DNA of 64,000 bases, from positions 7,111 to 71,110 of the forward strand of contig CAZPZY010000001.1 in assembly GCA_964591195.1 (NCBI GenBank). The letters are read 5' to 3'. This document shows positions 5,785-27,807 of this stretch, piece after piece; the first letter of the stretch is position 1, and each line of letters opens with the position of its first letter. The notes under the pieces are model-generated. The model was not told the DNA's origin, searched no databases, and was given only the letters and a program-made list of their open reading frames with translations. Origin of the DNA: an uncultured Candidatus Saccharibacteria bacterium. Its GTDB lineage: Bacteria; Patescibacteriota; Minisyncoccia; Minisyncoccales; JAGGSE01. A program made the translations under genes and the position numbers.

Positions 5785-5838
5785 AGGTTTAAACAGGTCT
5801 TGACCACCTTTGCAGAAAAAGCCCTAATAGATGCCTGC

Positions 5839-10048: not shown

Positions 10049-11311
10049 ATGGAACTAAAGAATCTAATTAAAAAATTTGTTCCCTCCCCCTTGCTCAATT
10101 TTTATCATCTTTCCCTTTCTTTCTTAGGAGCGGTCTTTTATGGATTTCCCTCCCGGAAATTAAGGGTTATCGGCGTGACAGGGACAAATGGAAAAACAAC
10201 AACAACTGAAATGATAACAAAAATCCTTGAGGATAACGGATTTGGGGTTGCCCTGGCTAACTCAATCCGCTTCAAAATCAAGGAAAAAGAAGAAAAAAAT
10301 GAATTAAGAATGACAATGCCGGGAAGGGCATTCCTCCAAAAATTTTTGAGAAAGGCAGTAAAAGAAAAATGCCAATATGCTGTTTTAGAAGTAACCTCGG
10401 AAGGAATTATCCAATACAGGCATAAATTCATTGATTTTGACGCTGCCATTCTTACCAATTTAAGCCCGGAACATATAGAAAGGCATGCTGGATTTGAAAA
10501 CTACAAAAGAGCGAAGGCAGAATTGTTTCAGGCAACAAAAAATATCCATATCATAAATTTAGATGATAAAAACGCCGACTACTTTCTCCAGTTTCGGGCA
10601 AAAGAAAAATATCTCTATAGAAAAGTCAATGGCAAAGAGCCAATGGCAAAGATTGAAATTCAAAAAGAAGGATTTTCCAAGACCCTAAAATTTCCCCTTT
10701 CCCTAAACCTGCTGGGAGATTTCAACATCTACAACGCTTTAGCCGCTGTCTGCCTTGGCTTGTCTCAGGGGATTGATCTAGCAAAATGCAAAAGGTCATT
10801 GGCCTCTTTCAGGGGCGTAGAGGGAAGAATGGAGGAGGTAATTTCTGAACCCTTTAGGGCAATTGTTGACTATGCCTTTACCCCCAATGCCTTAGAAAAG
10901 GTTTATCAGACACTTGTCAATAGGTTCATAAAACAAACAAACGCCCAACTAATCTGCGTTTTGGGCGCCTGTGGTGGGGGAAGAGACAAATGGAAAAGAC
11001 CTGTCCTAGGGAAAATAGCCGCCAAATACTGCAATAAGGTCATTCTTACCAATGAAGACCCTTATGACGAAGACCCAATGGAAATTATAAACCAGGTGGC
11101 TGAAGGAACCCAGAGCCAGCAGAGCAAATCAGTTTATAAAATTTTAGACCGGCGTGAGGCAATCAAAAAATCATTGCAACTGGCAAAAAAGGGCGATGTA
11201 ATAATAATCACGGGCAAGGGGTGCGAACCCTCAATTTGTTTGGCACAAGGAAAAAAGATTCCTTGGGATGACAGAAGGGTCCTCAGAGAAGAGTTTGAAA
11301 AAAATCTATGA
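10049..11311 (+). CDS. Mur ligase family protein, MurE-like C-terminal motifs, unusually short N-terminus
   Basis: VIGVTGTNGKTTTT ATP site at residue ~43; TNLSPEHIERH middle-domain motif; C-terminal VDYAFTPNAL...GACGGGRDKWKRP...TNEDPYDEDP resembles MurE DYAHTPDAL/GGDRDKGKR/DNPR motifs. Confidence 0.65.
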   Translation: MELKNLIKKFVPSPLLNFYHLSLSFLGAVFYGFPSRKLRVIGVTGTNGKTTTTEMITKILEDNGFGVALANSIRFKIKEKEEKNELRMTMPGRAFLQKFLRKAVKEKCQYAVLEVTSEGIIQYRHKFIDFDAAILTNLSPEHIERHAGFENYKRAKAELFQATKNIHIINLDDKNADYFLQFRAKEKYLYRKVNGKEPMAKIEIQKEGFSKTLKFPLSLNLLGDFNIYNALAAVCLGLSQGIDLAKCKRSLASFRGVEGRMEEVISEPFRAIVDYAFTPNALEKVYQTLVNRFIKQTNAQLICVLGACGGGRDKWKRPVLGKIAAKYCNKVILTNEDPYDEDPMEIINQVAEGTQSQQSKSVYKILDRREAIKKSLQLAKKGDVIIITGKGCEPSICLAQGKKIPWDDRRVLREEFEKNL

Positions 11312-11712
11312 AAAAATTTGAAATACTGGAACACGAGGCAGACCTGAAAATCAGGGTGCTTGGAAAAAGCAAAAAAGAACTCTTTAAAAACGCAATGATT
11401 GGAATGGAAAGTGTTCTTCGGCCAGAGGGTAAAGGTCCAAAATCAGAACCAAAAGAAATAAAGATAAAATCTAATGACCTAAATTCCCTTTTGGTTGATT
11501 TTTTATCGGAAATCAATTATCTAAATGAAGTAAACAAAGAAATCTATAATAAAATAAAATTTGCTAAATTTTCTGATAAGGAATTGGAAGGGGAACTCTC
11601 CGGCTACAAGGTCGAAGGTTTTGGATTGGTCATAAAGGGGGCAACCTATCATAACTTAGAGATTAAGCAAAAAAATAAAATCTGGCAGGCAACAATTTTA
11701 TTTGATATATGA
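11308..11712 (+). CDS. archease (RtcB activator/chaperone)
   Basis: N-terminal FEILEHEADLKIRVLGKS...LFKNAMIGM matches the archease family; immediately upstream of rtcB with a 4-nt overlap. Confidence 0.75.
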   Translation: MKKFEILEHEADLKIRVLGKSKKELFKNAMIGMESVLRPEGKGPKSEPKEIKIKSNDLNSLLVDFLSEINYLNEVNKEIYNKIKFAKFSDKELEGELSGYKVEGFGLVIKGATYHNLEIKQKNKIWQATILFDI

Positions 11713-13151
11713 TTTCCAAAAAAACTTTCAAGAAAATAAATGACTATCTATGGGAGATTCCGAAATCCTTTAGGCCGGATATGAGGGTCCCGGCAAGGAT
11801 CTATGTTTCTGAAAAGATGTTGGAAAGTTGCTTTAAGGACGAGTCAATTGCTCAGCTTATTAATACCGCTACCCTTCCCGGAGCTGTAAAATATGCGATT
11901 GCTATGCCGGATATCCACGAAGGGTATGGTATGCCCATTGGAGGAGTAGTGGCTACAAAGTATCCAGAAGGAGCAATTTCGCCAGGGGGAGTAGGAATGG
12001 ATGAAAACTGTGGGGTAAGATTGTTAAAATCGGAATATACTGAAAAAGAAATTAACCCCTATTTAGACAAACTGGCAACAGAAATTCAAAAAGAGGTTCC
12101 CTCGGGACTAGGGAGAGGGAGAAAGATTAAATTATCGATTGAACAAATTAACAAAATTTTAGAAGGTGGTGTTCCTTATTTGGTTGAAAAGGGTTATGGA
12201 GAAAAAGAAGATATTGAAAATTGCGAGCATCAGGGAAGAATGGAAATGGCAGATGAGAATTGTGTTTCTGAAAAAGCAAAAAACCGGGGAAGAGATCAGG
12301 TAGGGACTCTTGGGAGCGGAAATCATTTTTGCGAAGTTCAAAAAGTTGAGGAAATTTTTGATGAGGAAGTTGCTAAAATCTTTGGATTATTTAAAGATCA
12401 AGTTGTAGTAATGATCCATACCGGTTCTCGCGGTCTTGGCCATCAAAATTGCACTGATTATTTAAGAATTTTAATGCCAATTTATCCGAAATATGGAATA
12501 AAATTGCCGGATAAAGAACTTTGCTGTGTTCCCTTTAATTCTCCTGAAGGTCAAAGATTTTTTAGGGCAATGTCTGCTGCTTGCAATTTTGCTTGGGCGA
12601 ATAGACATATGATAACCCATTATGTTAGAAAGGCATGGCAAAAAGTTTTAGGAAAAAATGTTAAATTAAAATTACTTTATGATGTCGCTCACAATATTGC
12701 CAAAATTGAAGAGCATAATATTGATGCTAAAAAAATGAAATTAATTGTTCATCGCAAAGGAGCCACTCGGGCTTTTCCACCAGGTCATCCAGAACTGCCA
12801 GAAAAATATAAAGAAACTGGACAGCCGGTTTTGACTCCGGGCTCAATGGGAACGGCTTCCTATGTCTTAGTCGGAACAGAAAAATCAAGAGAGGCATTTT
12901 ATACTGTCAATCATGGAGCAGGCCGTACCATGTCCCGGCACAGGGCAATGAAGACCACCTCTGGGCAGAGAGTAATCAACCAGTTGAAATTAAAGGGAAT
13001 TGTGGTAAAATGTCATTCAATGAGGGGAATTGCCGAAGAGGCCCCCTTGGCTTATAAAGATATTGAGGAAGTAATAGAGGTCGTCAACAATGCCAATTTA
13101 GCCAAAAAGGTAGCAAAATTATCTCCCCTTGCGGTAATCAAGGGGGAGTAA
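11709..13151 (+). CDS. rtcB: RNA-splicing ligase RtcB (3'-phosphate/5'-OH RNA ligase)
   Basis: HEGYGMPIGGVVAT, GSGNHFCEVQ and NHGAGR metal/GTP-site motifs. Confidence 0.9.
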   Translation: MISKKTFKKINDYLWEIPKSFRPDMRVPARIYVSEKMLESCFKDESIAQLINTATLPGAVKYAIAMPDIHEGYGMPIGGVVATKYPEGAISPGGVGMDENCGVRLLKSEYTEKEINPYLDKLATEIQKEVPSGLGRGRKIKLSIEQINKILEGGVPYLVEKGYGEKEDIENCEHQGRMEMADENCVSEKAKNRGRDQVGTLGSGNHFCEVQKVEEIFDEEVAKIFGLFKDQVVVMIHTGSRGLGHQNCTDYLRILMPIYPKYGIKLPDKELCCVPFNSPEGQRFFRAMSAACNFAWANRHMITHYVRKAWQKVLGKNVKLKLLYDVAHNIAKIEEHNIDAKKMKLIVHRKGATRAFPPGHPELPEKYKETGQPVLTPGSMGTASYVLVGTEKSREAFYTVNHGAGRTMSRHRAMKTTSGQRVINQLKLKGIVVKCHSMRGIAEEAPLAYKDIEEVIEVVNNANLAKKVAKLSPLAVIKGE

Positions 13152-13156
13152 AAACT

Positions 13157-14962
13157 ATGAAAAAAATATTCTCTATACTCGTCCTCATCGGTCTGGTAGC
13201 AGGTTTGTCTTCAGAGCCCGTTAATATCTGGGCAAGGAAAGAAATTGGAGGAAAAGAAATAAAAGAAAAGGTAGAGAATCTAATTCCTCATCAGCCAGAA
13301 GAAAAGTCAGAAGGAGGAAAAATCTCTTCCACCTCAAGGAAAAAGGTAGTGAAGGATATTGCTCCAGAGTTCCAATTTATCCAACCCAAAACAGGAGAAA
13401 AACTAAAGGGAAAATTTGAGATAAAAGGCAGGGTAAAAGACGCTGATTCAGTTGAAATCTATTACCAATTGTCAGGAGCAATCCTTCCTGTTTATCTAGG
13501 AAAAGCCCAATCAAAGGAAAAGGATATCTGGAAATACTCTTGGGACACAAATCTGTCTCCCAATGGCAACTACGAACTTTTTGTAAAAATTAACAACAAA
13601 TATGGCGAATATGAAAGTTCAAGAATTAATATTGAAATTGAAAATGAAGTTCCTCATGACCAAGAAAAAGAAAACAAACTAAAAGAAGAGATATCCCAGG
13701 CAAGCCATGAAATTGAAAAACAAGAAGAAGAAATATCCACAGCAAAGAAGGAAATAAAAAAGAAGATAACAGAAGAAATTAAAAAGGTAGCGGAGGAAGC
13801 AAAGAGGGCCATCCCTGAAGAAAAAAAGAAAATTATAGAATCAGAAGTTGACAAAAGCGTTCAAGAAGCAAGTAAGGTAGTGGCAGAAAGCATAGAAGAA
13901 CTGGCCAAAAAAACCGAGGAAGAAAAGATAACCGAAGAAGAAATAACCAAAAAGGAAAAAGAGAAAGAAAAAATAGACAATAAAATTAAATCTGTTCAGA
14001 AAAAATTGGAAACCTCGCCAGCAACAACCTCTAAAAAGATAATAAAAGAGGTATTGAAAAGCCATCAGAAGGAAAAAGAAAAAATCGATAAACAGTTAGA
14101 GATGGCCAAAAACAAATTAGGCGAAATTAAAAAAGAGAAAGAGAAAAAGATAAACGAAATAATAAAGACAATTGACAATGTCTCAAAGCCATTAGAGGCA
14201 GTTCAGCCGACAAGCACAGTTTTTAGAACCAAAAAGGCGGCTAAGATAAAAATCAATCCCCTTCTAAAAAATTTAGAGGAGAAGGTTGAGAAAAAAACAG
14301 CAGAAAAAATTAAAAAGCAGACGATATTGGTTAGGGATTCAGATAATGATGGGCTCTCGGATAAAGAAGAGATAGCAATAGGAACCAACCCCTTTAATCC
14401 TGACTCGGATAGAGACGGCTTCTTGGACGGAGACGAATATGTGGCAGGTTTTAATCCATTAAAGCCGGGACCAGCCGGAAAAATTGTCTATCAGAATCCA
14501 AAAAGGGTTCTGCCCCAAAAAACTGATATCTATAGGGTAGAGAGGGTAGAAACGGTTGCTTTGCCCCATGGAGGAAAGGGATTAAAATTCAGCGGGAGGG
14601 GCTTGCCAAACTCTTTTATTACCTTGTTTATTTTCTCAAAACCGATAGTGGTTGTAGTCAAAACAGATAGTAGTGGTCATTGGGAGTACACCCTAGACAA
14701 GCCCTTAAGTGATGGCCAACACACTGTTTATGCTACGCTGACTGACAACCAAGGGCAAATCAAGGCACGTTCTGAAACATTTGTCTTCGTCAAAAAAGGA
14801 GAAAATGTCTTCAGAATTCTTGAAACCCCTGCTGAAGCGGTCTCACCTGTTGAAAAATTAAAAGGCCCTTTTACTATCTTAATTCTTTCTATTGTTATAT
14901 TATGCCTAACAATCGCCCTTATTATAATTGATATTTTAGCCAGGAAGAGGAGAAATGTTTAG
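13157..14962 (+). CDS. secreted/cell-surface protein: signal peptide, K/E-rich coiled coil, Asp-rich Ca-binding (thrombospondin-type-3-like) repeats, Ig-like domain, C-terminal TM anchor
   Basis: N-terminal hydrophobic signal; DSDNDGLSDKEE...NPFNPDSDRDGFLDGDE repeats; C-terminal GPFTILILSIVILCLTIALIIIDILARKRRNV. Confidence 0.5.
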   Translation: MKKIFSILVLIGLVAGLSSEPVNIWARKEIGGKEIKEKVENLIPHQPEEKSEGGKISSTSRKKVVKDIAPEFQFIQPKTGEKLKGKFEIKGRVKDADSVEIYYQLSGAILPVYLGKAQSKEKDIWKYSWDTNLSPNGNYELFVKINNKYGEYESSRINIEIENEVPHDQEKENKLKEEISQASHEIEKQEEEISTAKKEIKKKITEEIKKVAEEAKRAIPEEKKKIIESEVDKSVQEASKVVAESIEELAKKTEEEKITEEEITKKEKEKEKIDNKIKSVQKKLETSPATTSKKIIKEVLKSHQKEKEKIDKQLEMAKNKLGEIKKEKEKKINEIIKTIDNVSKPLEAVQPTSTVFRTKKAAKIKINPLLKNLEEKVEKKTAEKIKKQTILVRDSDNDGLSDKEEIAIGTNPFNPDSDRDGFLDGDEYVAGFNPLKPGPAGKIVYQNPKRVLPQKTDIYRVERVETVALPHGGKGLKFSGRGLPNSFITLFIFSKPIVVVVKTDSSGHWEYTLDKPLSDGQHTVYATLTDNQGQIKARSETFVFVKKGENVFRILETPAEAVSPVEKLKGPFTILILSIVILCLTIALIIIDILARKRRNV

Positions 14963-16286
14963 GTTTCTTAAATTCATAAAAACCTATCCTGGAATTCTAT
15001 ATTCTCTTTTTTTAATTATCTTTATTCCGCTTGCCTTCTACCTCGTTACCCTCTTTAGTGTCAATGCCTTTCAGAAAAACATCAACACCGTCCTTCAAAC
15101 AAAAGCCATTTTGGCAGAAAACATCATTAATGTCTTTAGCCCCGGTCTTCTTTCTCAACCGGAGGCTCTAGAAAGAAAAATTGAGCAGATCACAAAAGAA
15201 AATCCTGAAATCAAGAAACTCCGCTTTATAAAGCAGGAAAATGGAGAATTTAAAATTATTGCCTCTCAGGACCCCAAAGAAACAGGGGCATTCATTTCCG
15301 ATCCCTCCTTGGCTATAAGCTGGTCTCAAGGCCAAGCCATAGCCAAGAAGATAGAGATAAACGGCACAAGGTTTTGGAGTGTTAATAAACCAATTTTTGA
15401 TCCCCAAACAGGAAAAAAAATAGGCATTGTCTCTCTGGCTCTTTCTTTGGAACAATCCGACCTTTTAATCACCCGCTTAATTCATATCAGTTATGCCATT
15501 GTTATTATTGCCAATGTCCTCATCCTCTTTCTTATCCTCCAGCATACCCGACTCTTTTCCTATGTAGCCCTCTACAAAAAACTTCAGGAACTTGACAAAA
15601 TGAAGGATGAGTTTATTAGAATGGCAACCCACGAACTTCGCAGTCCTATTATAAACATCAGGGGTTATATTGAAGTTCTGAGGGAAAAAATTGAGCCCTC
15701 CCTGGATGAAGAAGAGAAAGAATATCTGCGGAGGATTGATATCTCAGCAAAAAACCTGGGCAATCTTATTGACGACATTCTCCAGGTTTCCAGAATCCAG
15801 CAGGGCCGACTGGATATCACTCCAAAAAGGATTCAGCCGGAGATTGTTATCAAGGAGGTAATCAAAGAGTTGGAACTGAAGGCCCAGAAAAAGGGCCTGA
15901 AATTAGTCTTTCAGCCCCAAGAGGAACCCCTTTATATTATGGCAAACCCCAACCGACTGCGGGAGATTATCTTCAATCTTGTCAATAATGCCATCAAATA
16001 TACGCCCAAGGGATGGGTAAAACTTGAAACCCAGGCAGACAAGATAAGAAAAAAATACCGCATCTCTGTAGCGGATACTGGGCTAGGCATCTCGGCTCAA
16101 GCCCAAACAAAACTTTTCCAAAAGTTCTACCGGGTTAGAACCAGGGAAACAGCCGATATTCCAGGAACCGGGCTGGGGCTGTGGATTAGCAAAGAACTCT
16201 GCCAAAAAATGGGCGGACAGATATTCTTAGAAAGCATGGAAGGAAAGGGCTCAAAGTTCACCCTTATCTTTCCCTTAGCCTCTTGA
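14955..16286 (+). CDS. sensor histidine kinase (two TM helices, HisKA, HATPase_c)
   Basis: H-box MATHELRSPI; G-boxes DTGLGI and GTGLGLWISKELCQKMGG. Confidence 0.8.
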   Translation: MFRFLKFIKTYPGILYSLFLIIFIPLAFYLVTLFSVNAFQKNINTVLQTKAILAENIINVFSPGLLSQPEALERKIEQITKENPEIKKLRFIKQENGEFKIIASQDPKETGAFISDPSLAISWSQGQAIAKKIEINGTRFWSVNKPIFDPQTGKKIGIVSLALSLEQSDLLITRLIHISYAIVIIANVLILFLILQHTRLFSYVALYKKLQELDKMKDEFIRMATHELRSPIINIRGYIEVLREKIEPSLDEEEKEYLRRIDISAKNLGNLIDDILQVSRIQQGRLDITPKRIQPEIVIKEVIKELELKAQKKGLKLVFQPQEEPLYIMANPNRLREIIFNLVNNAIKYTPKGWVKLETQADKIRKKYRISVADTGLGISAQAQTKLFQKFYRVRTRETADIPGTGLGLWISKELCQKMGGQIFLESMEGKGSKFTLIFPLAS

Positions 16287-16767: not shown

Positions 16768-17680
16768 CAAGCAAATCAAGACCAAGTTCAGGATTCATTT
16801 TTCCGCTTTTAATCTCAAGGTCTAATTCAAACAACCTTCGGTAAATCCTTTTTAACTGGCCCGAGGTAAATTTCCTCAAAAGGGGAAGGGTTTTTTTGAT
16901 TACATAAGGATGAATCCCGCTTGAGTAGGGGGAGAACCCCCTTTCAAGAAGGTCCTTAACAACCAAAAGGTTGCGAAATTGAAAATCAATCATTGAGAAT
17001 AAATAAAATGGAGATTCCCCCGAGTTTAGATGCGCCCTTATCAAGCCAAGGGCTGTTTTTCTATCTTTTTTGGCTATGGCATTGATGGTCTTAAAAATAT
17101 CGCTTTCTATTTTTGGCTTCACCAATGCCCGAACATCCTCTTCTTCTACAACAGAGTTTTTTCCTTTATAAGAGGATAATTTCCTGATTTCATTTGTCAT
17201 CCGCCAGGTGTCAGGACCCACAAAATCAATAAGTTGGCTCAATGCCCTTTGTTGAATTTTAACCCTGTATCGGGAAAATTCAGAGATTATCCATCTTTCC
17301 AGTTGTCTGCCTTTTAAGAAATCAAACTCTTGACTCCTTGAATTTTCAAGAAGAAATTTAAAAAATCTGTCTTTTTTCTCTATCTTCCTTGCTTCATAAA
17401 TCAAAATGGTGGCATTGGAAGACAAAATCCTCTTTTTGTTCTTGATAAACAAATCCTTGAATTCCTGATTTGAGAAAACGCCTTCTAAAATGAACAACCT
17501 TTTTTCTCCAAATATTGTGCCGGTTTCAATCTCCTGCCGAAAACTCCTAAAATCTAAATCCCTGCCTTCAAGGCGTCTTAATCCCGAGCCCTCCTTATGA
17601 ACCTCTTTATACCGGGCAATAAATTCATTCAACTTCCGCCGGCTTCTATAGGTATCTTGCCCATAGAGGAAAATAATCAT
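16754..17680 (-). CDS. holA: DNA polymerase III delta subunit
   Basis: N-terminal MIIFLYGQDTYRSRRKLNEF pattern and ~310-aa size typical of HolA. Confidence 0.7.
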   Translation of the reverse strand: MIIFLYGQDTYRSRRKLNEFIARYKEVHKEGSGLRRLEGRDLDFRSFRQEIETGTIFGEKRLFILEGVFSNQEFKDLFIKNKKRILSSNATILIYEARKIEKKDRFFKFLLENSRSQEFDFLKGRQLERWIISEFSRYRVKIQQRALSQLIDFVGPDTWRMTNEIRKLSSYKGKNSVVEEEDVRALVKPKIESDIFKTINAIAKKDRKTALGLIRAHLNSGESPFYLFSMIDFQFRNLLVVKDLLERGFSPYSSGIHPYVIKKTLPLLRKFTSGQLKRIYRRLFELDLEIKSGKMNPELGLDLLVTEI

Positions 17681-19290
17681 ATATCTAAAAGTTTAAGAAT
17701 TTTTTCTCTGTCTGCCAGCCACAGAAAGGTTGCCAGGCGTGGGCCCCTATCTTTGCCAAACAAGAGATTGTAAATATCCTTAAAAAACGCTCTCTGAGAC
17801 AGGGTAATTTTTTTTGGATCAAGCCCTGGCTCTTTAGGAATCTCATAGAGTATTTTTTTTAATTCCTCTACTGAGGAAGTGCCTGTCTCAATCCTCTCTC
17901 TTAATCTTCTTATCTGCTCTATTGATTTGAGGCTCATTTTTTTGAGATATTCTTGGTTAGGGTTTTCCAATAAAGAAAACCCTTGTTCAGGATTATATCT
18001 TTGAAGCCAGTTCCTGGCTCTTTTCAAACGAGACCTAACAGATTCCTTATCGTAGGCAATCCCCAATTTTTCCAATAATCTAATTGTCTTTTCTTGGTCC
18101 CATTGGGCAATCTGGCCCAGGGCGACCGCCTGACGAAAAGGAATTGGGTGTTTGTAAAATTTTTCCTTTTCAATGCTTAATTCTAAAGCCTGCCGACGTT
18201 CTAAATTAAGGACATTCTGTTGATACCTTTCAACCTCACTATCAAACTCATCATATTGGCGGTAGATCTCGCTGTCAAAAGCCAAGGTAAAAACACTGCT
18301 AGGCGATCTTCTTAAATACATCCATTTTAACAGGGAGGGCTCGTATATTTCCAAAAGTTGAAGCGGGGATACGGCATTGCCCTTTGAACTGGACATCTTT
18401 CCTTTCAGCCCCCGTAAGCCAATGAATTGGTAGCCGGCAAAAACAGGAGCCCTAATACCAAAAACCTCCCTGGCTATCACCTTAGAGACATCATAGCTCC
18501 CACCGGGAGAGGCATGATCAGCCCCTCCGGGCTCAAAAACCACTCCCTCTGCCATCCAGCGCATTGCCCAATCGGTTTTCCAAGCCAACTTTACTATATG
18601 TTCTTTGGTTATATCAATTTCATCAATCCTATTTGTCTTAAGACACTGATACCTTATTTTTGTCCTGCCATCATAAGCCAAGATTTTAACATTATCCTTG
18701 CCACTAAAGCGCGAATAAATAGAAATTGGATAATAGTTTTTTATGAACTCTTTAGGATCTATTCCCTTTTCTCTTTTTGCCTTCTCTGACATAAAGGAAA
18801 GAAGTATTTGGGCAATTTTTTGACGGGAATTTAATGCCTGAATAATAAACTGGTCATAACGGCCCGATTTGTATTCTTTGGTCTGATAACGATACTCAAG
18901 ATTTATCTCCAACTCAACCATTGCTCTCTCAAACTCTTTCTCAAATCTTTCTGCCCAGGAGTTATATTTTCCATCGGGGTCTGGAACAGAACTCAGGGGC
19001 GCCCCGATATATTTTTTGAAAGAATCATCTACCTCTGGAGGGACCCTCCGAAAGCGGTCAAAGTCATCCCAAGAAAAAATGAAACGGACCTTTTTGCCCT
19101 CTCTTTGAAGTTGTTTAGCCACAGCAAGGGAGGTCATTACATCGCGAAAGTTGCCAAAATGGACCGTTCCAGAGGGGGTAATTCCAGCGGCACAAACATA
19201 AACCTTCCTTGCAGGAAATTTTTTAAGAACCAATTTTGCAATTATTCTACTCCAATGCTGGCTATTGTCTTCCATAATTATTTTTGGCAT
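17677..19290 (-). CDS. lysK: class I lysyl-tRNA synthetase (archaeal-type LysRS); start probably at MPKIIMED rather than the upstream in-frame M
   Basis: PSGTVHFGNFRDV (HIGH-region variant) and KGKMSSSKG (KMSKS) in a class-I LysRS-like arrangement. Confidence 0.75.
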   Translation of the reverse strand: MPKIIMEDNSQHWSRIIAKLVLKKFPARKVYVCAAGITPSGTVHFGNFRDVMTSLAVAKQLQREGKKVRFIFSWDDFDRFRRVPPEVDDSFKKYIGAPLSSVPDPDGKYNSWAERFEKEFERAMVELEINLEYRYQTKEYKSGRYDQFIIQALNSRQKIAQILLSFMSEKAKREKGIDPKEFIKNYYPISIYSRFSGKDNVKILAYDGRTKIRYQCLKTNRIDEIDITKEHIVKLAWKTDWAMRWMAEGVVFEPGGADHASPGGSYDVSKVIAREVFGIRAPVFAGYQFIGLRGLKGKMSSSKGNAVSPLQLLEIYEPSLLKWMYLRRSPSSVFTLAFDSEIYRQYDEFDSEVERYQQNVLNLERRQALELSIEKEKFYKHPIPFRQAVALGQIAQWDQEKTIRLLEKLGIAYDKESVRSRLKRARNWLQRYNPEQGFSLLENPNQEYLKKMSLKSIEQIRRLRERIETGTSSVEELKKILYEIPKEPGLDPKKITLSQRAFFKDIYNLLFGKDRGPRLATFLWLADREKILKLLDI

Positions 19291-20159
19291 TTGGGGCAAA
19301 AATGAGCGGAGCGCCCTCCGATTTTCTGACGCTTGATTATGGCACCACATCTTGGACACCTTTGTCCCTCTTTCCGGTAAACCTTTATTACCCTGTCAAA
19401 CCCTCCCTTAGCGCCCCAGGGCAGGCGATAGTCAGAAACAGAGGCACCTTGAAGTTTTATTCCCAGAGATAAAATTTTCTTCATTGCTGAATAAATCTCC
19501 TTTAGTTCCTTTTCATTTAATTCCCTTATCTTCCTAAAGGGATTAATTCTCGCCTCAAATAAAATCTCATCAGAATAGATATTGCCAATTCCGGCAATTA
19601 CACCTTGGTCCATTAACACCTGTTTAATCGCTTTATTTTTCTTTTTCAAAACACCTTCCTTGAACTTCTCAAAGGTAAAACTTTTGTCTAATGGTTCCGG
19701 ACCCAGAGAACCTAATTCCTTTTTCAGTTCCTCTTCACTTAAGACCTCTAACTTGGCAAATTTTCTTAAATCAGAGAGGGCTAATTGCTTCCCGTTATCT
19801 AAATAAAATATCAGGTGTAAAAACCTGTTCATCGGGTCCTCGGTCAAAGGACCTTTAACAAGAGCCTGCCATTTATTGTCTTGCCGTTTCCATTCTCCCA
19901 AAAGCAGATGACCTGTTAATTTTTGGTGGATTAGGAGATTTTTACCAGAGGACAACCCAAAAATAATATTTTTTCCTCTCCGCCAAATTTTTTTAATTTT
20001 CTTGCCCTTGATCTCCTTTTTGAACTGAAGAAGGTCTTTGGGCTTTTTAATAAGCGAGGGGCTGTCAGTCCAAATGTCTAAAAAAACAGCCCCTAATATC
20101 CGGGGTCTGGTTTTCTTTAATATATTAATAGTAGTTTCCACCTCAGGAAGCTCAGGCAT
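19278..20159 (-). CDS. mutM: formamidopyrimidine-DNA glycosylase (Fpg/MutM)
   Basis: N-terminal MPELPEVE catalytic Pro2/Glu3; C-terminal zinc finger [25 protein letters not shown]. Confidence 0.85.
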   Translation of the reverse strand: [293 protein letters not shown]

Positions 20160-20173
20160 TTACAACTGTAAAA

Positions 20174-20542
20174 TTACTTAATAATGTTCCTTATTTTTTC
20201 AACGATTTCCCCGGGTGTGAAATGGGCTTTAATCAGATAGTCAGTTGCCCCCATCTTCAAACCCTTCTCAATGTCTTCTTTCTGACCCAAATTTGAAAGA
20301 ATGATTACGGGAATTAAACTGGAGGCGGGGTCTTCTTTTATCTTGCTTAAAACCTCAAATCCATCCATCTCAGGCAAGATAAGATCGAGCAGAATTAGGT
20401 CTGGCTTTGTTTCCTTTGTCTTTTTAACCCCCTCTTCTCCGTCTACTGCCTCTGAAACCTCATAACCATCTTTAGCCAATTTTTTGGCTATCAGTTCTCT
20501 CAAAAATTTGTCGTCCTCAATAATTAAAATTTTCTTTGCCAT
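20174..20542 (-). CDS. single-domain response regulator (REC only)
   Basis: KILIIEDD...DLILLDLILPEMDGF...ATDYLIK CheY-like receiver motifs; 122 aa. Confidence 0.8.
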   Translation of the reverse strand: MAKKILIIEDDKFLRELIAKKLAKDGYEVSEAVDGEEGVKKTKETKPDLILLDLILPEMDGFEVLSKIKEDPASSLIPVIILSNLGQKEDIEKGLKMGATDYLIKAHFTPGEIVEKIRNIIK

Positions 20543-20557
20543 ATTTAATGCGCGTTA

Positions 20558-20929
20558 TCATTTACCGATTTGTTTGACCACCTTTTTTAACACCTCTTCC
20601 GGGTCAAACTCGGTTTTGATTAGCCAGTCCTTCGCTCCCAATTCCTGAGCCCTACCTATCTCTACCGGTTGCCCGGAGTTGGAAATGATAATTACCGGAA
20701 TTTTCTTAAGATTTTCCTCTTTATTCATTTCTTCCATTACCTGAAACCCGCTCATTTTTGGCATAATAACATCAAGCAAGACAAGGTTTGGTCTCTCCTT
20801 CTTTATCATTTTTAATCCCTCTTCTCCGTTTCTTGCCAACAAAACACCATAGCCCTCTTTTTTCAATCTCTTTTGAAGAAGGTCCGACAGTATCTCCTCA
20901 TCTTCAACTATTAAAATTTTTTTTGCCAT
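20558..20929 (-). CDS. single-domain response regulator (REC only)
   Basis: KILIVEDE...LVLLDVIMPKMSGF...AKDWLIK receiver motifs; 123 aa. Confidence 0.8.
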   Translation of the reverse strand: MAKKILIVEDEEILSDLLQKRLKKEGYGVLLARNGEEGLKMIKKERPNLVLLDVIMPKMSGFQVMEEMNKEENLKKIPVIIISNSGQPVEIGRAQELGAKDWLIKTEFDPEEVLKKVVKQIGK

Positions 20930-20983
20930 CGTTTTTTGTCTTGAATTCTTTTACCTAATTCTACTACTTTCAGGGGAAGAATG

Positions 20984-22306
20984 TCAAGTCAAGGGTAAAG
21001 AAAAGTGAAACACAGACCCCTTGTTTTCCTCTGATTCTGCCCAGATTTTCCCCCGGTGTGCCTCAATAATATTTTTGGAAATAAATAGCCCCAGGCCGGT
21101 TCCTTCTGTTTCCATTCTCACTGCATTTGCCCCTCTAAAAAATTTAGTAAAGAGTCTGTCCTGTTGTTCCTTGGGAATACCTATACCCGTATCCCTTACG
21201 GAAAATTCTATCTCTTTCTTCTTCCGCTTAAGAGAAACAACAATTTTTCCTCCCGGGGGAGTGTATCTAACAGCGTTTTCCAGAAGGTTTTGAATCACCA
21301 AACTAATTTTTTCCTCATCAAGTTTAATCTGCGGTAGTTTTCCCTTTGGTCTTTTGAATTCAAACTTTATCTTTTTTCTCTTAATCTCTGCCTTGTGAGA
21401 ATTAATCACCGCCTGGCATATTTTTGTCAGATCGCGAAAAGCCGGCTTATAGATATATCTGCCTTCCTCAATCCTGGCAACGTCCAAAAGGTCGTTAACC
21501 AGATTAATCATCCGTTCATTGGACTGATAGGTTTTTTGAAGAAATCTCTTTTGTTCCTCAGTCAGGGGGCCCATATCCTCTGCCAAAATCATTCCCAAAC
21601 TCCATTTTATCGCTGACAGTGGAGTCCTTAATTGATGAGCGGCTACAGATACAAATTCGGTCTTCATTCTCTCTATCCGTTTTTCGTGGGTAATATCATG
21701 GAGTACAAGCAAACTTCCTATTCTTTCTTTCTCTCTTGTTATTGGGCTCGTTGTTATCTCCAGAATTAGGTTTTCATGGAGTTTAACCTCTTCTCGGAAG
21801 ACCTTTTTCTTTTTTTCGACTACCTGAACGACCAGTTTTAAGGAAGAAAAACGGCTCAAATTAGCAAGGGATTCTCCTTCTATCTCTTCCGCCCTAATGC
21901 CTAAAATCTCTTCCGCCTGAGAATTAACCAATGAAACCCTGTTGTCGGAATCAAAAACCAAAAGCCCGTCGGTTAGGTTGGCAATGATGGCAAGCGTCTT
22001 GTTTCTTTCCTCCTCAGCCTTCTTTCTGGCCTCATCAATATCTTCCAATATATTCAGCAGTGCCTTTCTCGCATCTTTTAGTTCTTTGGTCTTTTTTTCT
22101 AGCTGCTCTACCTTCCTTTTAATATCTGCCGCCTTGGCTATTTCCCTTATTCTCAAGACCATTTCTCTCTCCTTGGCTGCTTCCAGTTCTTTTATCTTTC
22201 GCTCCAATTCTTCTTTAACCCGAGTTAATTCAAGGTCTCTCCGGAGTAGCGTTTTCGTACCCTTCCTTAATTCTTCAGATTTAAATTCTTCTTGCTTTTC
22301 TCCCAT
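20984..22306 (-). CDS. cytoplasmic histidine kinase (N-terminal coiled coil, PAS, HisKA, HATPase_c)
   Basis: H-box AAHQLRTPLSAI; N/G boxes NLLENAVRYT, DTGIGI, GTGLGLFISKNIIEAHRG. Confidence 0.8.
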   Translation of the reverse strand: MGEKQEEFKSEELRKGTKTLLRRDLELTRVKEELERKIKELEAAKEREMVLRIREIAKAADIKRKVEQLEKKTKELKDARKALLNILEDIDEARKKAEEERNKTLAIIANLTDGLLVFDSDNRVSLVNSQAEEILGIRAEEIEGESLANLSRFSSLKLVVQVVEKKKKVFREEVKLHENLILEITTSPITREKERIGSLLVLHDITHEKRIERMKTEFVSVAAHQLRTPLSAIKWSLGMILAEDMGPLTEEQKRFLQKTYQSNERMINLVNDLLDVARIEEGRYIYKPAFRDLTKICQAVINSHKAEIKRKKIKFEFKRPKGKLPQIKLDEEKISLVIQNLLENAVRYTPPGGKIVVSLKRKKKEIEFSVRDTGIGIPKEQQDRLFTKFFRGANAVRMETEGTGLGLFISKNIIEAHRGKIWAESEENKGSVFHFSLPLT

Positions 22307-23274
22307 TATTTTTGTTTTTGGTCCTTATATTTTTCTAATTCCTCTTTTAATTTCTTAATCTCCTTCTTTAGTTCTATCATTCTCAATTCCCGGCCAACAG
22401 TTAATTTTTGAAATCTTTCCAATTCTGTCAATCTTTCCTGAAGTTCTTTTGTCCTTTCCTTAACCTTTTCTTCCAAACTCTCGGTCAGCTTTCTTAATTC
22501 TTTGGTCCTTTCTTGAACCTTTACCTCCAACCCCGCCTTCTCTTTTTCCAGGGCCTCTTTTGATTTTCTTAAATCCTCAACTGTTCTGTTAAAGGTATCA
22601 GCCAATTCTCCTATTTCTGTTTTTGACCTAACCTTAACCTTTACCTTAAGGTTCCCTTCTCTGATTTTCTGACAGGCACGGTTTAATTTTCTCAAGGGGG
22701 TCACTATTTCCCTTAAGAGAATGACTAAAATCAAAATAGTTATCAACAAGCCGCTCCCTGTGATTAAAAAGTCCCTTATCCACATATCTCTAATGGTTTT
22801 CTCTATGCTAGCCAGGGTAAACCCGACCCAGATGGTCTTGTTTTGGTAGCCAGGATAAATAATCAACTTTGTTTTTTCCCCTTCAAAAAAACTATCTTTA
22901 ATTAGCGGCTTTTGTGTGCTAATTACCTTTAGGATGTCAGGTTCTTTAATAATCCTTCCCCATTCTTTTTCAATACTGCTTTTATAAATAGTCCCATCTT
23001 GATTGACCACCCGGATATATTTCACATCTTTAAAGGTAGCCAGTTCTCCAATGAGGGCTTTTTCCATTCCGGGCACCAGAGCCAATCTATAAACCCAAAT
23101 CGGAGATGCCAAAGATTCATTTAGTGTCTCGGCTAGATGAATCTTTTCCCTAATTGCCGTTTCAATCAAATCCTTTTTATGCTGACTAATAGAGAAATAA
23201 ACAGAAGCAAAATTAGCAGTAATTAAAATTCCGAAAACAACAAAAATAATGGTGTAGAGTGAATGTTTTCTCAT
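22306..23274 (-). CDS. membrane sensor protein: TM, periplasmic domain, TM, HAMP, long coiled coil; no kinase domain
   Basis: Two hydrophobic segments flank a ~150-aa extracytoplasmic region; HAMP-like segment; stop TAA overlaps the ATG of the downstream kinase (TAATG). Confidence 0.6.
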   Translation of the reverse strand: MRKHSLYTIIFVVFGILITANFASVYFSISQHKKDLIETAIREKIHLAETLNESLASPIWVYRLALVPGMEKALIGELATFKDVKYIRVVNQDGTIYKSSIEKEWGRIIKEPDILKVISTQKPLIKDSFFEGEKTKLIIYPGYQNKTIWVGFTLASIEKTIRDMWIRDFLITGSGLLITILILVILLREIVTPLRKLNRACQKIREGNLKVKVKVRSKTEIGELADTFNRTVEDLRKSKEALEKEKAGLEVKVQERTKELRKLTESLEEKVKERTKELQERLTELERFQKLTVGRELRMIELKKEIKKLKEELEKYKDQKQK

Positions 23275-23278
23275 AAAC

Positions 23279-24223
23279 CTACTCTGGAATGGCTGATGAG
23301 CTGTGGCTGGCAGATACTACATCAATAAAAAGGTCTGAGAATTTTTTTGCTTTTTCCTTGCTTACCCCCAATTTCAATAATTCTTTTTCTGATAGAGATG
23401 CCCCTTGGTCAACGGCAACTATTTTGTAGGAAGGAAACCTTGATTTTAGCCAGATACCCAGTTCATAAGGGGTGATAAAGACCGGGTTAAAGAGTTGGCC
23501 CCATTTTCTAAAATCAGACAGAGACAATGAATCAAAACGCCCGTTGGTAAATAAAATCAAATCTATTTTTTTCAGTTGAACCAGTTCTTGATATTTCCGA
23601 GGGAAATTCAAATTGTACTGGATCTCCGGGTCAATTAAAATCCTGGCCCCCTTTGGGCTTTCAAGCAACCAGGCACCATGACCCAACCACTCGGTCTTAA
23701 CCCCTAACAATTCTTTTTCTTCTCCTATTTGAAATTTTAGGGCTTTGCTTCTCAGATCATATTTTTCCAGCTCTTTAAAAAATTCCTCCGGGTTTTTGAC
23801 TAACTCAGGAAAACTAGCATAACGGTCAGGCACAATATAAGAAGAGGGACCAATCAAACAAGCGGCATAGGCAGCGGCTTTAGGGCTTAGGCTATAGATA
23901 TTTCCAATTGGCAAAAAGGCAACATCTGGTTTATAAAACCTACCTATTAGTTGCAGATTAGAATCCAGCCCTGTAGGTCCGGAAAAATAAAATTTGGTTC
24001 CATTTTCAAACCCTATTACATAACCCACTGCTTCTCCTGTATAAATATAAGGGGCGACCCTTTTTTCTAAGAGCGCCTCTTTCCTGTCTAGGTTCTCCAT
24101 TGTTTTTTCTATTCTTTCCAAACTGATTTTCAGATTATTGGAAACACTAATGGCTAAAAAAATTCCAGTTAAAGATATAATTAAGACGCTAATTAAAATA
24201 GTGAGGATAAATTTGTTGCTCAT
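23279..24223 (-). CDS. membrane-anchored MBL-fold (Lactamase_B_3-like) protein, apparently circularly permuted and lacking the His metal site
   Basis: GPTGLDSNLQLIGRFYKPDVAFLPIGNIYSL...SYIVP (normally the C-terminal part of the fold) precedes WLGHGAWLLESPKGARILIDP...IDLILFTNGRFDSL (normally the N-terminal part; HxHxDH replaced by TNGRFD). Confidence 0.45.
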   Translation of the reverse strand: MSNKFILTILISVLIISLTGIFLAISVSNNLKISLERIEKTMENLDRKEALLEKRVAPYIYTGEAVGYVIGFENGTKFYFSGPTGLDSNLQLIGRFYKPDVAFLPIGNIYSLSPKAAAYAACLIGPSSYIVPDRYASFPELVKNPEEFFKELEKYDLRSKALKFQIGEEKELLGVKTEWLGHGAWLLESPKGARILIDPEIQYNLNFPRKYQELVQLKKIDLILFTNGRFDSLSLSDFRKWGQLFNPVFITPYELGIWLKSRFPSYKIVAVDQGASLSEKELLKLGVSKEKAKKFSDLFIDVVSASHSSSAIPE

Positions 24224-24302
24224 ACTATTTTTATTTTAGCATTTTTTTCTCAAAAGAAAAATGGGGCTGATAAAAAGCCCCATTTTTCTTCTTTTGTTCT
24301 GA

Positions 24303-25457
24303 TTACTTCAGTTCAAAGACCGAAAGGGAAGAGTCCTCAAATCCAGCCACATAGACATATGGTCCTGAGACATAAACTGACCAAGCGCCACCCAAGTAAT
24401 ATGGAGCGCCCCTCCCTTGAATGGAATCCACCAAGGTTGGTTTTTTCGGGTTGCTGATATCAAAGACTGAGAGAGCGCTGTCCTTAGCAGAGGCAACATA
24501 GGCATATTTCCCGGAAACAAAGACAGAAGAGGCACCTCCCAAAAAGTAGGGACTGCCGGCTCCGTGAACATTGCCCAAAAACAGGGGAGCAGTTGGGTCA
24601 GAGACATCAAAAATAGTCAGGGAATTGTCATACATTGAAGCAACATATGCCTTATTTCCAGAGACAAAAACTGAGGTTGCTCCGTCAAGATAATTTGGAT
24701 AACCGGCTCCTCTGGCAGTACCGACATGTTTTGGATGGGTTGGATCGGAAACATCAGAAACGCTCAAGGCATCATCACCAGCCGTAGCCACATAGGCATG
24801 GTTATGGCTTACAGCAACAGAACTGGCTCCGTCTAGGTAGGGGGATGCCTTGCCGGCAACCGAACCAAGATACTTCGGATTGCTTGGGTCGGAAACATCA
24901 ATCAAGGTCAGGGCCTTATCATCAAAGGCGGCAACATAGGCAATGTTCTTAACCACACAAACCGAGTTTGCTCCGTCAAGATAATTGGGGGAACCAGCAC
25001 CAGAAATGACTCCTAGGTGCTTTGGATTTTCCGGGTCAGAGACATCAAAAATAGTCAGGGCGTCATCTAAATAGGAAGCAACATAGGCACGGTTCCCAGA
25101 GACAAAAACAGAATCTGCTCCACCCAAGTAGTAGGGGGCCCCTGCTCCTTTCAATACCTTTACCAATTTAGGATGAGAAGGGTCGGAGATATCAAAGACT
25201 GAAAGAGCACTGTCCTGCAGAGAAGCAGTAAAGGCATAATTTCCTGCAATATGAACAGAACTTACCCCCTTCAAGAAATTTGGAGAGCCGCCTCCTGAAA
25301 TCTTTCCTACAAACTCAAGATTCCCCTTCTGAACTGGCGGCGGCAGTGGAGGAGTAGGGGATGGTGGCGAGGGCTTTCTCAACCAGATAAAGGAAAAACC
25401 GACAAAGGCAACAACTACAACGATAAATACTAACCAATAAATCTTATTATCCTTCAT
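24303..25457 (-). CDS. secreted LVIVD-repeat beta-propeller protein (seven ~43-aa repeats)
   Basis: Seven repeats of G-A-G-x-P-x-Y-L-x-G-A-x-S-V-x-V-S-G-N-x-A-Y-V-A-...-D-x-A-L-T-I-F-D-V-S-D-P-x-x-P-K; N-terminal TM/signal followed by a Pro-rich linker. Confidence 0.7.
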   Translation of the reverse strand: MKDNKIYWLVFIVVVVAFVGFSFIWLRKPSPPSPTPPLPPPVQKGNLEFVGKISGGGSPNFLKGVSSVHIAGNYAFTASLQDSALSVFDISDPSHPKLVKVLKGAGAPYYLGGADSVFVSGNRAYVASYLDDALTIFDVSDPENPKHLGVISGAGSPNYLDGANSVCVVKNIAYVAAFDDKALTLIDVSDPSNPKYLGSVAGKASPYLDGASSVAVSHNHAYVATAGDDALSVSDVSDPTHPKHVGTARGAGYPNYLDGATSVFVSGNKAYVASMYDNSLTIFDVSDPTAPLFLGNVHGAGSPYFLGGASSVFVSGKYAYVASAKDSALSVFDISNPKKPTLVDSIQGRGAPYYLGGAWSVYVSGPYVYVAGFEDSSLSVFELK

Positions 25458-26526: not shown

Positions 26527-27807
26527 ATGGACGTATCGCTATCATCATCCATTTCTAATGTAGTAAAAGAAATAAAGAATGTCCCGGGATTCAAGAAGAA
26601 GATAGAAAACGCTCTTCAAAAAAACATTACTGAACTTTTTGCAATTATCCTGGGAGGAGCCATTGGCTTAAGGGCCTCCGACATTCATATTGAGCCGCGA
26701 AAAGAAACAGTCCGGCTCCGTCTCAGAATTGATGGAATCCTGCAGGATGTAATCCTTATCAGTCCTAAAATCTATCACTCTCTTCTTTCCAGAATAAAAT
26801 TTGTCTCGGGATTAAAATTAAATGTAAGTGACCGGCCCCAGGATGGAAGATTCTCAATTATTCAAGGAGAAAGGAAAATTGAAACCAGGGTCTCAAGCCT
26901 CCCCTCTGATTTTGGAGAATCAATAGTAATGCGATTGCTAGATCCGAGAAATCTGATTGAGATAGAACAACTTGGCTTAAGAAAGGACCTGTTGGCACTT
27001 TTCAAAAAACAAATAAAAAGACCAAACGGAATGATTTTGGTAACAGGTCCTACCGGCTCTGGTAAAACAACAACCCTCTATGCCTTTCTGAAGCGGATAC
27101 AAAATCCAGAGATAAAGATAATCACCATAGAAGACCCCATTGAGTACAAACTAAAAGGAATCACCCAAACCCAGGTCAATCATAAAAAGGGATATGACTT
27201 CGCCTCGGGCCTAAGGGCGCTTATGAGACAGGACCCGGATGTGATATTGGTTGGAGAAATCAGAGACCTGGAGACCGCTGAAATTGCCTGCGAGGCCGCT
27301 CTCACTGGTCACCTTGTTTTATCTACCCTCCACACAAACGACGCTGCCGGCGCTATAGCCCGGTTGGTTGACATAGGGGTCCGACCCATTTCAATTGCCC
27401 CGGCAATCAATATGGCTATTGCCCAGCGTCTTGTAAGAAGGGTCTGTAAAAAATGCGTAAGGTATGTCAAGCCCTCTAAGGAGGAAAGAAAAAAAATAAA
27501 AGAAGGGCTGGCAAATGTAAGAAAAGATATTATTCCTCCAGAATTTTTTGCCACCGACTTCAAAATTCCAAAGATACAAGGTTGTCCTGACTGCAATTTC
27601 ACTGGATACCGAGGAAGAACCGGCATTTATGAGGCATTCGTGGTGGATGACCAGATGAAGGAATTTATTTTAACAAACCCCTCAATAACAGCCACAAGAA
27701 ATTTAGCCATAAAAAAAGGAATGGTCTTAATGCATCAGGATGGATTGATTAAGGTGCTGGAGGGTATAACCACAATTGAAGAGGTGGAAAGGGTAACTGG
27801 AGAATAA
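26527..27807 (+). CDS. GspE/PilB-family secretion/pilus-assembly ATPase (short form)
   Basis: Walker A VTGPTGSGKTTT; GEIRDLETAEIA...TGHLVLSTLHTND; C-terminal Zn motif CPDCNFTGYRGRTGIYE. Confidence 0.85.
   Translation: MDVSLSSSISNVVKEIKNVPGFKKKIENALQKNITELFAIILGGAIGLRASDIHIEPRKETVRLRLRIDGILQDVILISPKIYHSLLSRIKFVSGLKLNVSDRPQDGRFSIIQGERKIETRVSSLPSDFGESIVMRLLDPRNLIEIEQLGLRKDLLALFKKQIKRPNGMILVTGPTGSGKTTTLYAFLKRIQNPEIKIITIEDPIEYKLKGITQTQVNHKKGYDFASGLRALMRQDPDVILVGEIRDLETAEIACEAALTGHLVLSTLHTNDAAGAIARLVDIGVRPISIAPAINMAIAQRLVRRVCKKCVRYVKPSKEERKKIKEGLANVRKDIIPPEFFATDFKIPKIQGCPDCNFTGYRGRTGIYEAFVVDDQMKEFILTNPSITATRNLAIKKGMVLMHQDGLIKVLEGITTIEEVERVTGE

Follow-up and report, generated by a model that had tools for sequence, protein, structure and literature searches.

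The window analysed here is a stretch of 64,000 nucleotides (contig CAZPZY010000001.1, positions 7,111 to 71,110; GenBank assembly GCA_964591195.1; GC about 0.40) from an uncultured Candidatus Saccharibacteria bacterium placed in the Patescibacteriota. It contains a cluster of six minus-strand genes which encode, in order, an LVIVD β-propeller (gene 1), a metallo-β-lactamase (MBL)-fold protein (gene 2), a HAMP-containing membrane sensor (gene 3), a soluble histidine kinase (gene 4) and two single-domain receivers, REC1 and REC2 (genes 5 and 6; Table 1). The open reading frames (ORFs) have exactly the coordinates given in a first-pass annotation, which had read the cluster as one signalling operon, and its domain calls for all six products are upheld by Pfam and NCBIfam. 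The gaps it listed as 80, 5, −1, 55 and 16 nt are 79, 4, −1, 54 and 15 nt as measured here, a matter of counting convention without consequence. Taken together, the domain matches and the conservation of predicted orthologs lie well beyond chance.

Table 1. Features of the signalling cluster, listed in the direction of transcription.
Feature	Coordinates	Strand	Basis
LVIVD β-propeller gene, 384 aa; N-anchored or secreted; lineage-specific accessory	24303..25457	-	Pfam, repeat period
Terminator-like hairpin, GGGGC-loop-GCCCC core, 15 pairs plus T-run, directly 3' of the propeller gene	24246..24290	-	folding, synteny
Extended -10-like element TGCTAAAAT, 9 nt before the MBL start codon; candidate promoter	24233..24241	-	sequence reading, consensus-level
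Permuted UPF0173-type MBL-fold gene, 314 aa, N-anchored, degenerate metal site	23279..24223	-	profiles, AlphaFold model
Output-less membrane receptor (sensor) gene, 322 aa: TM1, PDC/sCache, TM2, HAMP, long helix	22306..23274	-	Pfam, model
Receptor C-terminal S-helix tail: two ERTxEL units plus GRELRMIELK	22309..22557	-	family alignment, tail HMM
Soluble histidine kinase gene, 440 aa: ~100-aa coiled coil, PAS, HisKA, HATPase_c	20984..22306	-	Pfam
Candidate sigma-70-like promoter of REC1, TTGACA-18-TAGAAT; overlaps the stop codon of the kinase gene	20958..20987	-	11/12 matches
REC1, single-domain CheY-like receiver	20558..20929	-	Pfam Response_reg E = 1.5e-25
REC2, single-domain receiver, 47% identical to REC1	20174..20542	-	Pfam Response_reg E = 6.3e-28

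The sensor has two transmembrane (TM) helices separated by a loop of ~135 residues, and a HAMP domain (E = 1.5e-14) after which neither Pfam nor NCBIfam finds an output domain, as had been proposed at first reading. The kinase has no TM helix. Its HisKA (E = 6.4e-19) and HATPase_c (E = 1.6e-32) domains are identified by Pfam, and the H-box with His224 and the N, G1, F and G2 boxes are all intact. Both receivers (122 and 123 residues) have the acidic pocket, the phospho-acceptor Asp (Asp53 in REC1), the Ser and the Lys. In the window, as in a 96%-identical relative, the stop codon of the receptor gene and the start codon of the kinase gene share a base (TAATG). The NCBIfam WalK profile is the best profile for both proteins, with positions 11–261 matching the sensor and positions 214–594 the kinase. 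In two divergent relatives (L019 and L021; loci compared with the window are numbered with the prefix L), the gene after the MBL gene encodes a single 594-aa kinase that aligns with sensor residues 1–246 at 42–43% identity and with kinase residues 99–439 at 55%, the latter stretch being collinear with residues 252–593 of the fused proteins. Since these homologs are collinear with both proteins and the WalK profile spans both, we conclude that sensor and kinase are the halves of one enzyme; the comparison shows genes 3 and 4 to encode a predicted histidine kinase of WalK architecture split over two chains. Further fused forms include proteins of 466–494 aa, a protein with an NtrB-like core in L013 and one with a HAMP-less core in L024, a metagenome-assembled genome (MAG) labelled ANME-1. 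An extra coiled coil is present at the break point in both halves.

The split form is the common one. Sensors with HAMP only, separate from the kinase, make up the majority (> 100 protein clusters, ~311–335 aa, down to 33% identity), which upholds the earlier proposal that sensor and kinase are separate polypeptides; therefore the receptor gene is not a pseudogene. Homologs of the sensor and of the MBL-fold protein are named in their sources as Patescibacteria, Nealsonbacteria or Paceibacter, with a few labelled by binning as Saccharibacteria, Altiarchaeales or Methanophagales. These relatives and the base composition assign the window to a Patescibacteria (Paceibacteria-like) genome. The AlphaFold model of the sensor (predicted local distance difference test, pLDDT, 85.5) has a PDC/single-Cache ectodomain, the HAMP domain and an unbroken helix over residues 220–321. 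The best fold match in the Protein Data Bank (PDB) is WalK of B. subtilis (9A5D chain A, E = 3.4e-12), followed by crystal structures of the S. aureus WalK ectodomain [4YWZ, 7DUD and 5IS1, TM-score 0.66–0.69 on the target]. Some sources label the sensor a methyl-accepting chemotaxis protein (MCP); this was rejected, as Pfam finds HAMP only and no MCPsignal domain.

The last ~80 residues of the receptor are the most conserved part of the family, ahead of the ectodomain. This tail consists of two ERTxEL S-helix units (ERT at sensor residues 255–257 and 273–275) and a GRELxMxELK motif, and includes eleven invariant residues (E243, R256, T257, L260, T275, E286, R295, E296, M299, E301 and L302). 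A hidden Markov model (HMM) of the tail matches the extreme C-termini of further receptors encoded in the same gene clusters, which are of dCache-HAMP, short-loop HAMP or flavodoxin-polytopic type (E = 1e-14 to 1e-22). An exhaustive search of 1.84 billion representatives returned 525 matches at E ≤ 1e-10, and among the motif-bearing top matches the tail is almost always terminal, with 120 of 123 ending within 35 residues of the motif. Pfam identifies HAMP, dCache_1, Cache_3-Cache_2, HisKA_7TM, 5TMR-LYT, PAS, 4HB_MCP and flavodoxin domains in the 80 tail proteins scanned, and HisKA, HATPase, MCPsignal or GGDEF in none (0/80). All members of the tail-bearing clusters that were looked up are metagenomic. 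Two tail receptors accompany a single kinase in L002, L014, L020, L022 and L090. The receptors at L090 7960–9267 and L092 4538–5866, which adjoin the MBL-sensor pair, have a flavodoxin-like N-terminus and 5–6 TM helices before the same S-helix tail. A rare exception to the terminal position is the sensor ortholog at L018 7548–8783, where a Cys-rich extension of ~90 aa (CWDFWNC...CPAYL...C...C..C) continues past the tail.

The S-helix, with its ERT motif, was defined as an element 'almost always between two signaling domains' (PMC1592074). The tail resembles it in having two ERTxEL units within an uninterrupted predicted helix and differs in being the C-terminal end of the protein, so that a terminal S-helix is atypical. 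We considered whether the tail could be a degenerate DHp H-box (GRELRM compared with SHELRT) and rejected this: Pfam HisKA misses the tail even at E ≤ 10, and in none of the loci does the tail HMM match the DHp region of a kinase. Because one terminal tail is shared by receptors that lack an output domain, we read it as an output or docking module through which such receptors would couple non-covalently to a soluble kinase. Several receptors probably converge on one soluble kinase, judging from the clusters in which tail-bearing proteins outnumber kinases.

The MBL-fold protein has a single N-terminal TM helix followed by a helical stalk. Its residues 59–163 match positions 119–221 of the UPF0173 hydrolase profile and residues 174–246 match positions 3–60; profile comparison with Igni18 and TM1162 gives the same swapped order (residues 61–159 to 122–219, residues 174–233 to 3–60). 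The AlphaFold model (pLDDT 90.8) has the αβ/βα MBL fold, with 3X2Z, 7E3V and 6HRG as top matches, and a sequence-order-dependent alignment covers one half only (~100 columns at 1.4–1.5 Å, 29–36% identity); each of the two halves superposes separately to this degree. The profile matches in swapped order and the half-only structural alignment therefore identify the protein as a circular permutant of the UPF0173 hydrolases with new termini near canonical position 119/120, which bears out the permutation suggested in the first-pass annotation. The same annotation had described a membrane-anchored protein without metal ligands. The anchor stands, and nearly all ligands have indeed been lost in the window lineage (TNGRFDS for HxHxDH, GPTG for GDTG and PDRY for PxHY), but the His of ASHSS is kept. 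Distant members of the family retain the full set of ligands (HxHxDH, GDTG, PxHY and H). The protein scores 105.4 bits against PRK00685, below the NCBIfam cut-off of 144 bits. Its closest relatives in sequence and structure are UPF0173 proteins (Igni18, 6HRG; TM1162, 3X2Z; 7E3V), of which Igni18 and TM1162 are promiscuous metal hydrolases (PMC7846560); unlike these, it is permuted, N-anchored, stalked, stripped of nearly all metal ligands in the window lineage and genomically tied to a sensor. The permuted family is small (about 59 clusters, 14 species-level genomes and L024) and well conserved, with 96–100% identity among close relatives and a mean column identity of 61% over the family. The charge asymmetry of its anchor (+1.3 on the N side, about 0 on the C side) equals that of the N-in TM1 of the sensor, which favours an extracytoplasmic location; the MBL domain is thus probably outside the membrane.

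An MBL gene lies immediately upstream of this type of receptor in 15/15 loci seeded with the MBL protein, including one in an archaeal-labelled MAG and one in an unrelated context. In the reciprocal test, seeded with the sensor, it is present in two of three loci (L090 and L092). The pairing is kept both with split receptors and with those joined to a kinase, of which there are three types. The pair of L092 sits in an unrelated neighbourhood (V-ATPase genes); this locus also encodes a stand-alone GGDEF protein of 167 aa 6 kb downstream. In L093, where the receptor has a different ectodomain, the slot of the MBL gene is taken by one for an N-anchored FIST-domain protein (5610–6950), directly upstream of the HAMP-tail receptor, which suggests that anchored co-sensor domains may be interchangeable. 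The exchange at a variant ectodomain and the unrelated context of L092 mean that pairing tracks the ectodomain, as is expected for an extracytoplasmic co-sensor. Gene neighbourhoods thus show that the MBL gene travels with this ectodomain, its product being a candidate partner.

The propeller of gene 1 matches seven LVIVD repeats (E = 7.5e-50; 166.5 bits against a Pfam cut-off of 20.2), and seven L[ST]xx[DE]xS strands recur with a period of 48–49 aa. No solved relative was found by sequence. The N-terminus has a TM core (residues 6–24) followed by a Pro-rich linker, PSPPSPTPPLPPP, and no signal-peptidase site is evident. The seven blades proposed earlier are consistent with the repeat count; secretion was proposed too, but given the lack of a cleavage site the protein is equally likely to be anchored. 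The propeller had also been counted as an integral part of the pathway, and this did not hold, as it is facultative (7 of about 19 lineages) and followed by a hairpin of its own. Outside the window, orthologs lie directly upstream of the MBL gene only in L011–L014, L016 and L017. The propeller occurs solely in the sub-clade whose MBL protein lacks the final His of HxHxDH, if not more of the motif, and in no lineage with the motif intact (0). Among the matches listed, LVIVD propellers of 36–45% identity are found in unrelated contexts and phyla, so the family is broad. The distribution and the intergenic sequence show the propeller to be an optional accessory, apparently punctuated from the rest in transcription.

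The claim of a single six-gene operon holds only in part, in view of a conserved hairpin and internal promoter-like sites. Genes 2, 3 and 4 are tightly packed (4 and −1 nt), but there is a terminator-like hairpin behind gene 1 and a promoter-like site ahead of each of genes 2 and 5. The 79-nt gap between propeller and MBL genes folds at −24.2 kcal/mol. A hairpin with T-run occupies the same position in five lineages (the window, L011, L014, L016 and L017), with unrelated sequences, and in each a TAAAAT-like or -10-like element follows. In L012 and L013 the two genes overlap by 4 nt. Separate promoters or terminators between surface-protein and kinase genes had been named as evidence against one operon; the conserved hairpin and T-run lie between the propeller and MBL genes. 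Neither class of site is enriched in the region relative to shuffled sequences (promoter-like, 11 found, 14.8 expected; terminator-like, 14 found, 10.3 expected), and of the sites scanned we place weight solely on the positionally conserved hairpin. Rfam gives no match to a structured RNA in the gaps of the cluster. The candidate promoter TGCTAAAAT would yield a near-leaderless MBL mRNA. The likely expression units, as predicted from these elements, are [exo-]propeller, MBL-sensor-kinase and REC-REC(-fpg...).

Conservation of gene order, which the first-pass annotation had proposed as a check, is mixed. The linkage of MBL and sensor is kept, and kinase and receivers are downstream in nearly all related loci, with the REC1/REC2 ortholog pair after the kinase in most of them, but the propeller is facultative and the kinase is often apart. 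Sensor and kinase genes overlap in the window, but in most relatives they are parted by inserted genes. The co-directional run is longer than the six genes: fpg (14-nt gap), lysS and holA belong to it downstream, as does a 5'-3' exonuclease gene upstream; this wider gene order, including the fpg, lysS, holA run, is itself syntenic among relatives. On the exo-propeller side, nearly all relatives have a divergently oriented gene for a PilB/GspE-type (T2SSE) ATPase (26527–27807, plus strand, in the window). Binding of single-domain receivers to pilus ATPases is known from other bacteria (PMC7656254). The PilB-like ATPase is a candidate output of the receivers, although its adjacency may also be plain synteny.

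The kinase varies between loci. In most relatives the kinase is a longer PAS-coil-PAS protein, and ahead of it is encoded a soluble protein of ~200 aa, here called X200 (L006 9909–10499, L004 10140–10733, L008 9476–10093, L091 7947–8552; sometimes duplicated), which in related clusters is always directly upstream of that kinase and has no significant Pfam match. X200 is absent from the window. The kinases of the window, L018 and L090 are shorter and lack X200. X200 may act as an adaptor or as a co-sensor on the cytoplasmic side.

Among known systems, WalK with WalH and WalI comes closest, but membership fails on score, type of regulator and accessory folds. The order of modules (TM, ~135-aa PDC ectodomain, TM, HAMP, PAS, HisKA, HATPase) is shared and collinear with WalK, in which all are in one chain rather than on two polypeptides. 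The cut-off of the WalK equivalog NF033092 is 725 bits, and the window sensor and kinase score 66.2 and 288.4 bits. WalRK has WalR, a DNA-binding regulator of the OmpR family, whereas the window locus has two receiver-only proteins. Assignment to WalRK, PhoR or PnpS was thus rejected, with scores below the curated cut-offs and no DNA-binding regulator in the locus. N-anchored extracellular accessory proteins, WalH and WalI, are known beside WalK, and a β-lactamase-fold protein is also in that locus (PMC4801191). WalH and WalI have the YycH/YycI fold, whereas the accessories in the window are an MBL-fold protein and an LVIVD propeller according to Pfam; WalJ is cytoplasmic and unpermuted, and the window MBL-fold protein is anchored and permuted. 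Gene order differs as well, the window accessories being upstream of the sensor.

Other systems share single aspects. In MCP–CheA arrays HAMP-containing membrane receptors are apart from a soluble kinase and many receptors have a common cytoplasmic module. The locus has no MCPsignal, CheW or CheA, its kinase is an ordinary HisKA/HATPase_c protein and coupling is proposed from sequence; the shared module is a long hairpin bundle in MCPs and an ~80-aa S-helix in the tail receptors. ODP (6QNM), one of the fold matches of the MBL-fold protein, is an MBL-fold sensor for a chemoreceptor and provides a precedent. Af1503, whose HAMP structures are among the sequence matches of the sensor, likewise has two TM helices, an extracytoplasmic domain and HAMP without an enzymatic output, but lacks the double S-helix tail after HAMP, the fused kinase homologs and the conserved kinase and receiver neighbours. 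Functional kinases divided over two associating polypeptides have been described as CheA3/CheA4 (PMC3591291) and Hik36/Hik43 (PMC7656254). In these the phospho-acceptor domain (P1/HPt or HisKA) is severed from the catalytic domain, whereas in the window the 440-aa protein has the whole kinase core and the division separates the transmembrane HAMP transmitter from the PAS-kinase core. The locus is a two-component system with extracytoplasmic accessories, set apart by the split, the terminal S-helix tail and the permuted pseudo-MBL protein. The first-pass annotation had not recognised it as a described system. This is so for those three traits: in the literature searched we found no description of a split between transmitter and kinase, of a shared terminal S-helix tail, of any permuted MBL protein or of a pseudo-MBL co-sensor of this kind; but sensor and kinase together have the WalK architecture, and WalH and WalI are a precedent for the accessories.

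We lean, with modest assurance, towards a two-component module of Patescibacteria type built from separate polypeptides: a pseudo-MBL co-sensor, a receptor whose tail is docked on a soluble kinase, and two receivers. Outside the membrane the pseudo-MBL protein, with or without the propeller, would serve as a co-sensor of a ligand or of the state of the envelope and would modulate the receptor ectodomain, as WalH and WalI do with WalK or binding proteins with LuxQ and TorS. The conformational signal would run through HAMP into the S-helix tail, and the tail would set autophosphorylation of the soluble kinase dimer by docking, without a covalent link, on the coiled coil at its N-terminus. Phosphate would then pass to the two CheY-like receivers. 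Other output-less receptors with the same tail (dCache, 7TM, PAS and flavodoxin-TM types), a number of them encoded in the same clusters, may have one soluble kinase as their common target.

Several observations weigh against this reading and have to be set beside it. L091 has the receptor and no MBL gene; at L092 (7001–8704) a V4R-domain protein comes after the MBL-receptor pair, and no kinase is encoded within 7 kb. In many relatives unrelated genes intervene between receptor and kinase, for example that of an amine oxidase in L008 or, in L093, those of an AAA protein, TusA and a sulfur transporter, and in most relatives X200 could be the real coupling partner. Among kinase N-termini no motif was identified as a universal docking partner for the tail; LLxRDLEL was considered and rejected, as it occurs only in the window lineage and L018. 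The correlation of propeller and degenerate MBL site is probably a single evolutionary event, and the topology of the MBL-fold protein is read from charge bias alone. Finally, housekeeping genes are syntenic across relatives too; because the neighbourhood is broadly syntenic, gene order by itself is weak evidence of function. From these facts it could be argued that the HAMP-tail receptor does not signal to the adjacent kinase and that the clustering marks a syntenic slot (exo ... fpg-holA) in streamlined genomes, the tail engaging instead an X200/V4R-type small protein, single-domain receivers or a machine such as the PilB-like ATPase, and the soluble PAS kinase sensing cytoplasmic cues by itself. 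The loci without a nearby kinase or with foreign genes in between, X200 upstream of most kinases, the syntenic flanks and the kinases' own PAS sensor domains all agree with such an arrangement. We nevertheless regard it as rather unlikely, since in fused homologs this ectodomain and HAMP lead directly into either the same PAS-HisKA-HATPase core or a different kinase core, the two genes overlap at the TAATG junction in the window and its close relative, and the tail caps input domains of the kind usual in sensor kinases.

There is a smaller chance, which we rate as slight, that the MBL protein is an envelope enzyme (a hydrolase, for example, that processes or quenches a signal or a cell-wall-derived compound), in this lineage an inactive relic of one, or merely a co-expressed protein, the receptor sensing its product or substrate and the propeller being an unrelated surface protein. 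The complete ligand set in distant members, the hydrolase activity of the nearest solved relatives (PMC7846560), the hairpin behind the propeller gene and the independent occurrence of LVIVD proteins elsewhere are compatible with this; the near-complete loss of ligands from a protein that is nonetheless conserved in the window lineage implies a selected non-catalytic role, pairing follows the ectodomain rather than genomic context, and a non-enzymatic FIST sensory domain can fill the same slot. That the division between sensor and kinase results from gene decay or from an assembly or frameshift artefact, leaving a non-functional receptor fragment, has a negligible probability. Fused homologs do exist and the ORFs overlap by one base within an A-rich stretch (CAAAAACAAAAATAATG), but the HAMP-only form prevails in independent assemblies of diverse sequence, the tail is the best-conserved segment of the receptor, spacers or whole genes part the two genes in other lineages, and the junction has neither a canonical slippery heptamer nor a long homopolymer. 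Frameshift, pseudogene formation and programmed slippage at the TAATG junction are ruled out by the conserved split form and the absent slippery site, and by the conservation of predicted proteins an artefact is effectively refuted.

Several features outside the cluster were recorded. The lysS gene (class-I lysyl-tRNA synthetase; 17677–19359, minus strand) as listed overlaps fpg (19278–20159, minus strand) by 82 nt; its true start is probably an internal Met, as a 96%-identical ortholog aligns from residue 24. A second histidine kinase (14955–16286, plus strand; 443 aa) is unsplit, with TM, an ectodomain of ~150 aa, TM, HisKA and HATPase; it shares 29% identity with the cluster kinase, no response regulator is encoded next to it, and an ortholog occupies the matching position in L010. 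Next to it, 13157–14962 (plus strand) encodes a surface-type protein of 601 aa with a signal-like N-terminus, a long coiled region rich in Lys and Glu, calcium-binding-like DxDxDG repeats and, at the C-terminus, a TM anchor. Upstream of this gene, ORFs in 11308–13151 resemble a putative archease/RtcB pair. An FMN riboswitch (RF00050; 29832–29985, plus strand; 97 bits against a gathering score of 66.2) is the sole Rfam match in the window.

Patescibacteria, or the Candidate Phyla Radiation, are reported to have the lowest histidine-kinase frequencies of all bacteria, which has been read as a reduced capacity for sensing (PMC10805038). We tentatively raise the possibility, short of a probability, that signalling in these organisms has a plug-in character, in which hundreds of kinase-less receptors with input domains customary in sensor kinases (PDC, dCache, 7TM, PAS, flavodoxin-TM) couple non-covalently through one S-helix docking tail to few soluble HisKA kinases. 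If true, this would be a HisKA-based counterpart of the MCP–CheA arrays, in which anchored co-sensors, permuted pseudo-MBL or FIST, are swappable input adaptors and few kinases integrate many inputs, an economical solution for a tiny genome. If sensors routinely are apart from their kinases and share a tail, counts of kinases would seriously underestimate sensory capacity, and the view of low sensing would need revision. A natural break point between sensor and kinase with a conserved interface would serve as a tool for rewiring two-component systems and would allow a direct test of how HAMP and S-helix signals cross a non-covalent junction. Because its members range from metal-binding to ligand-free, the permuted, anchored MBL family would also offer a natural series for the transition from enzyme to binding protein or co-sensor.

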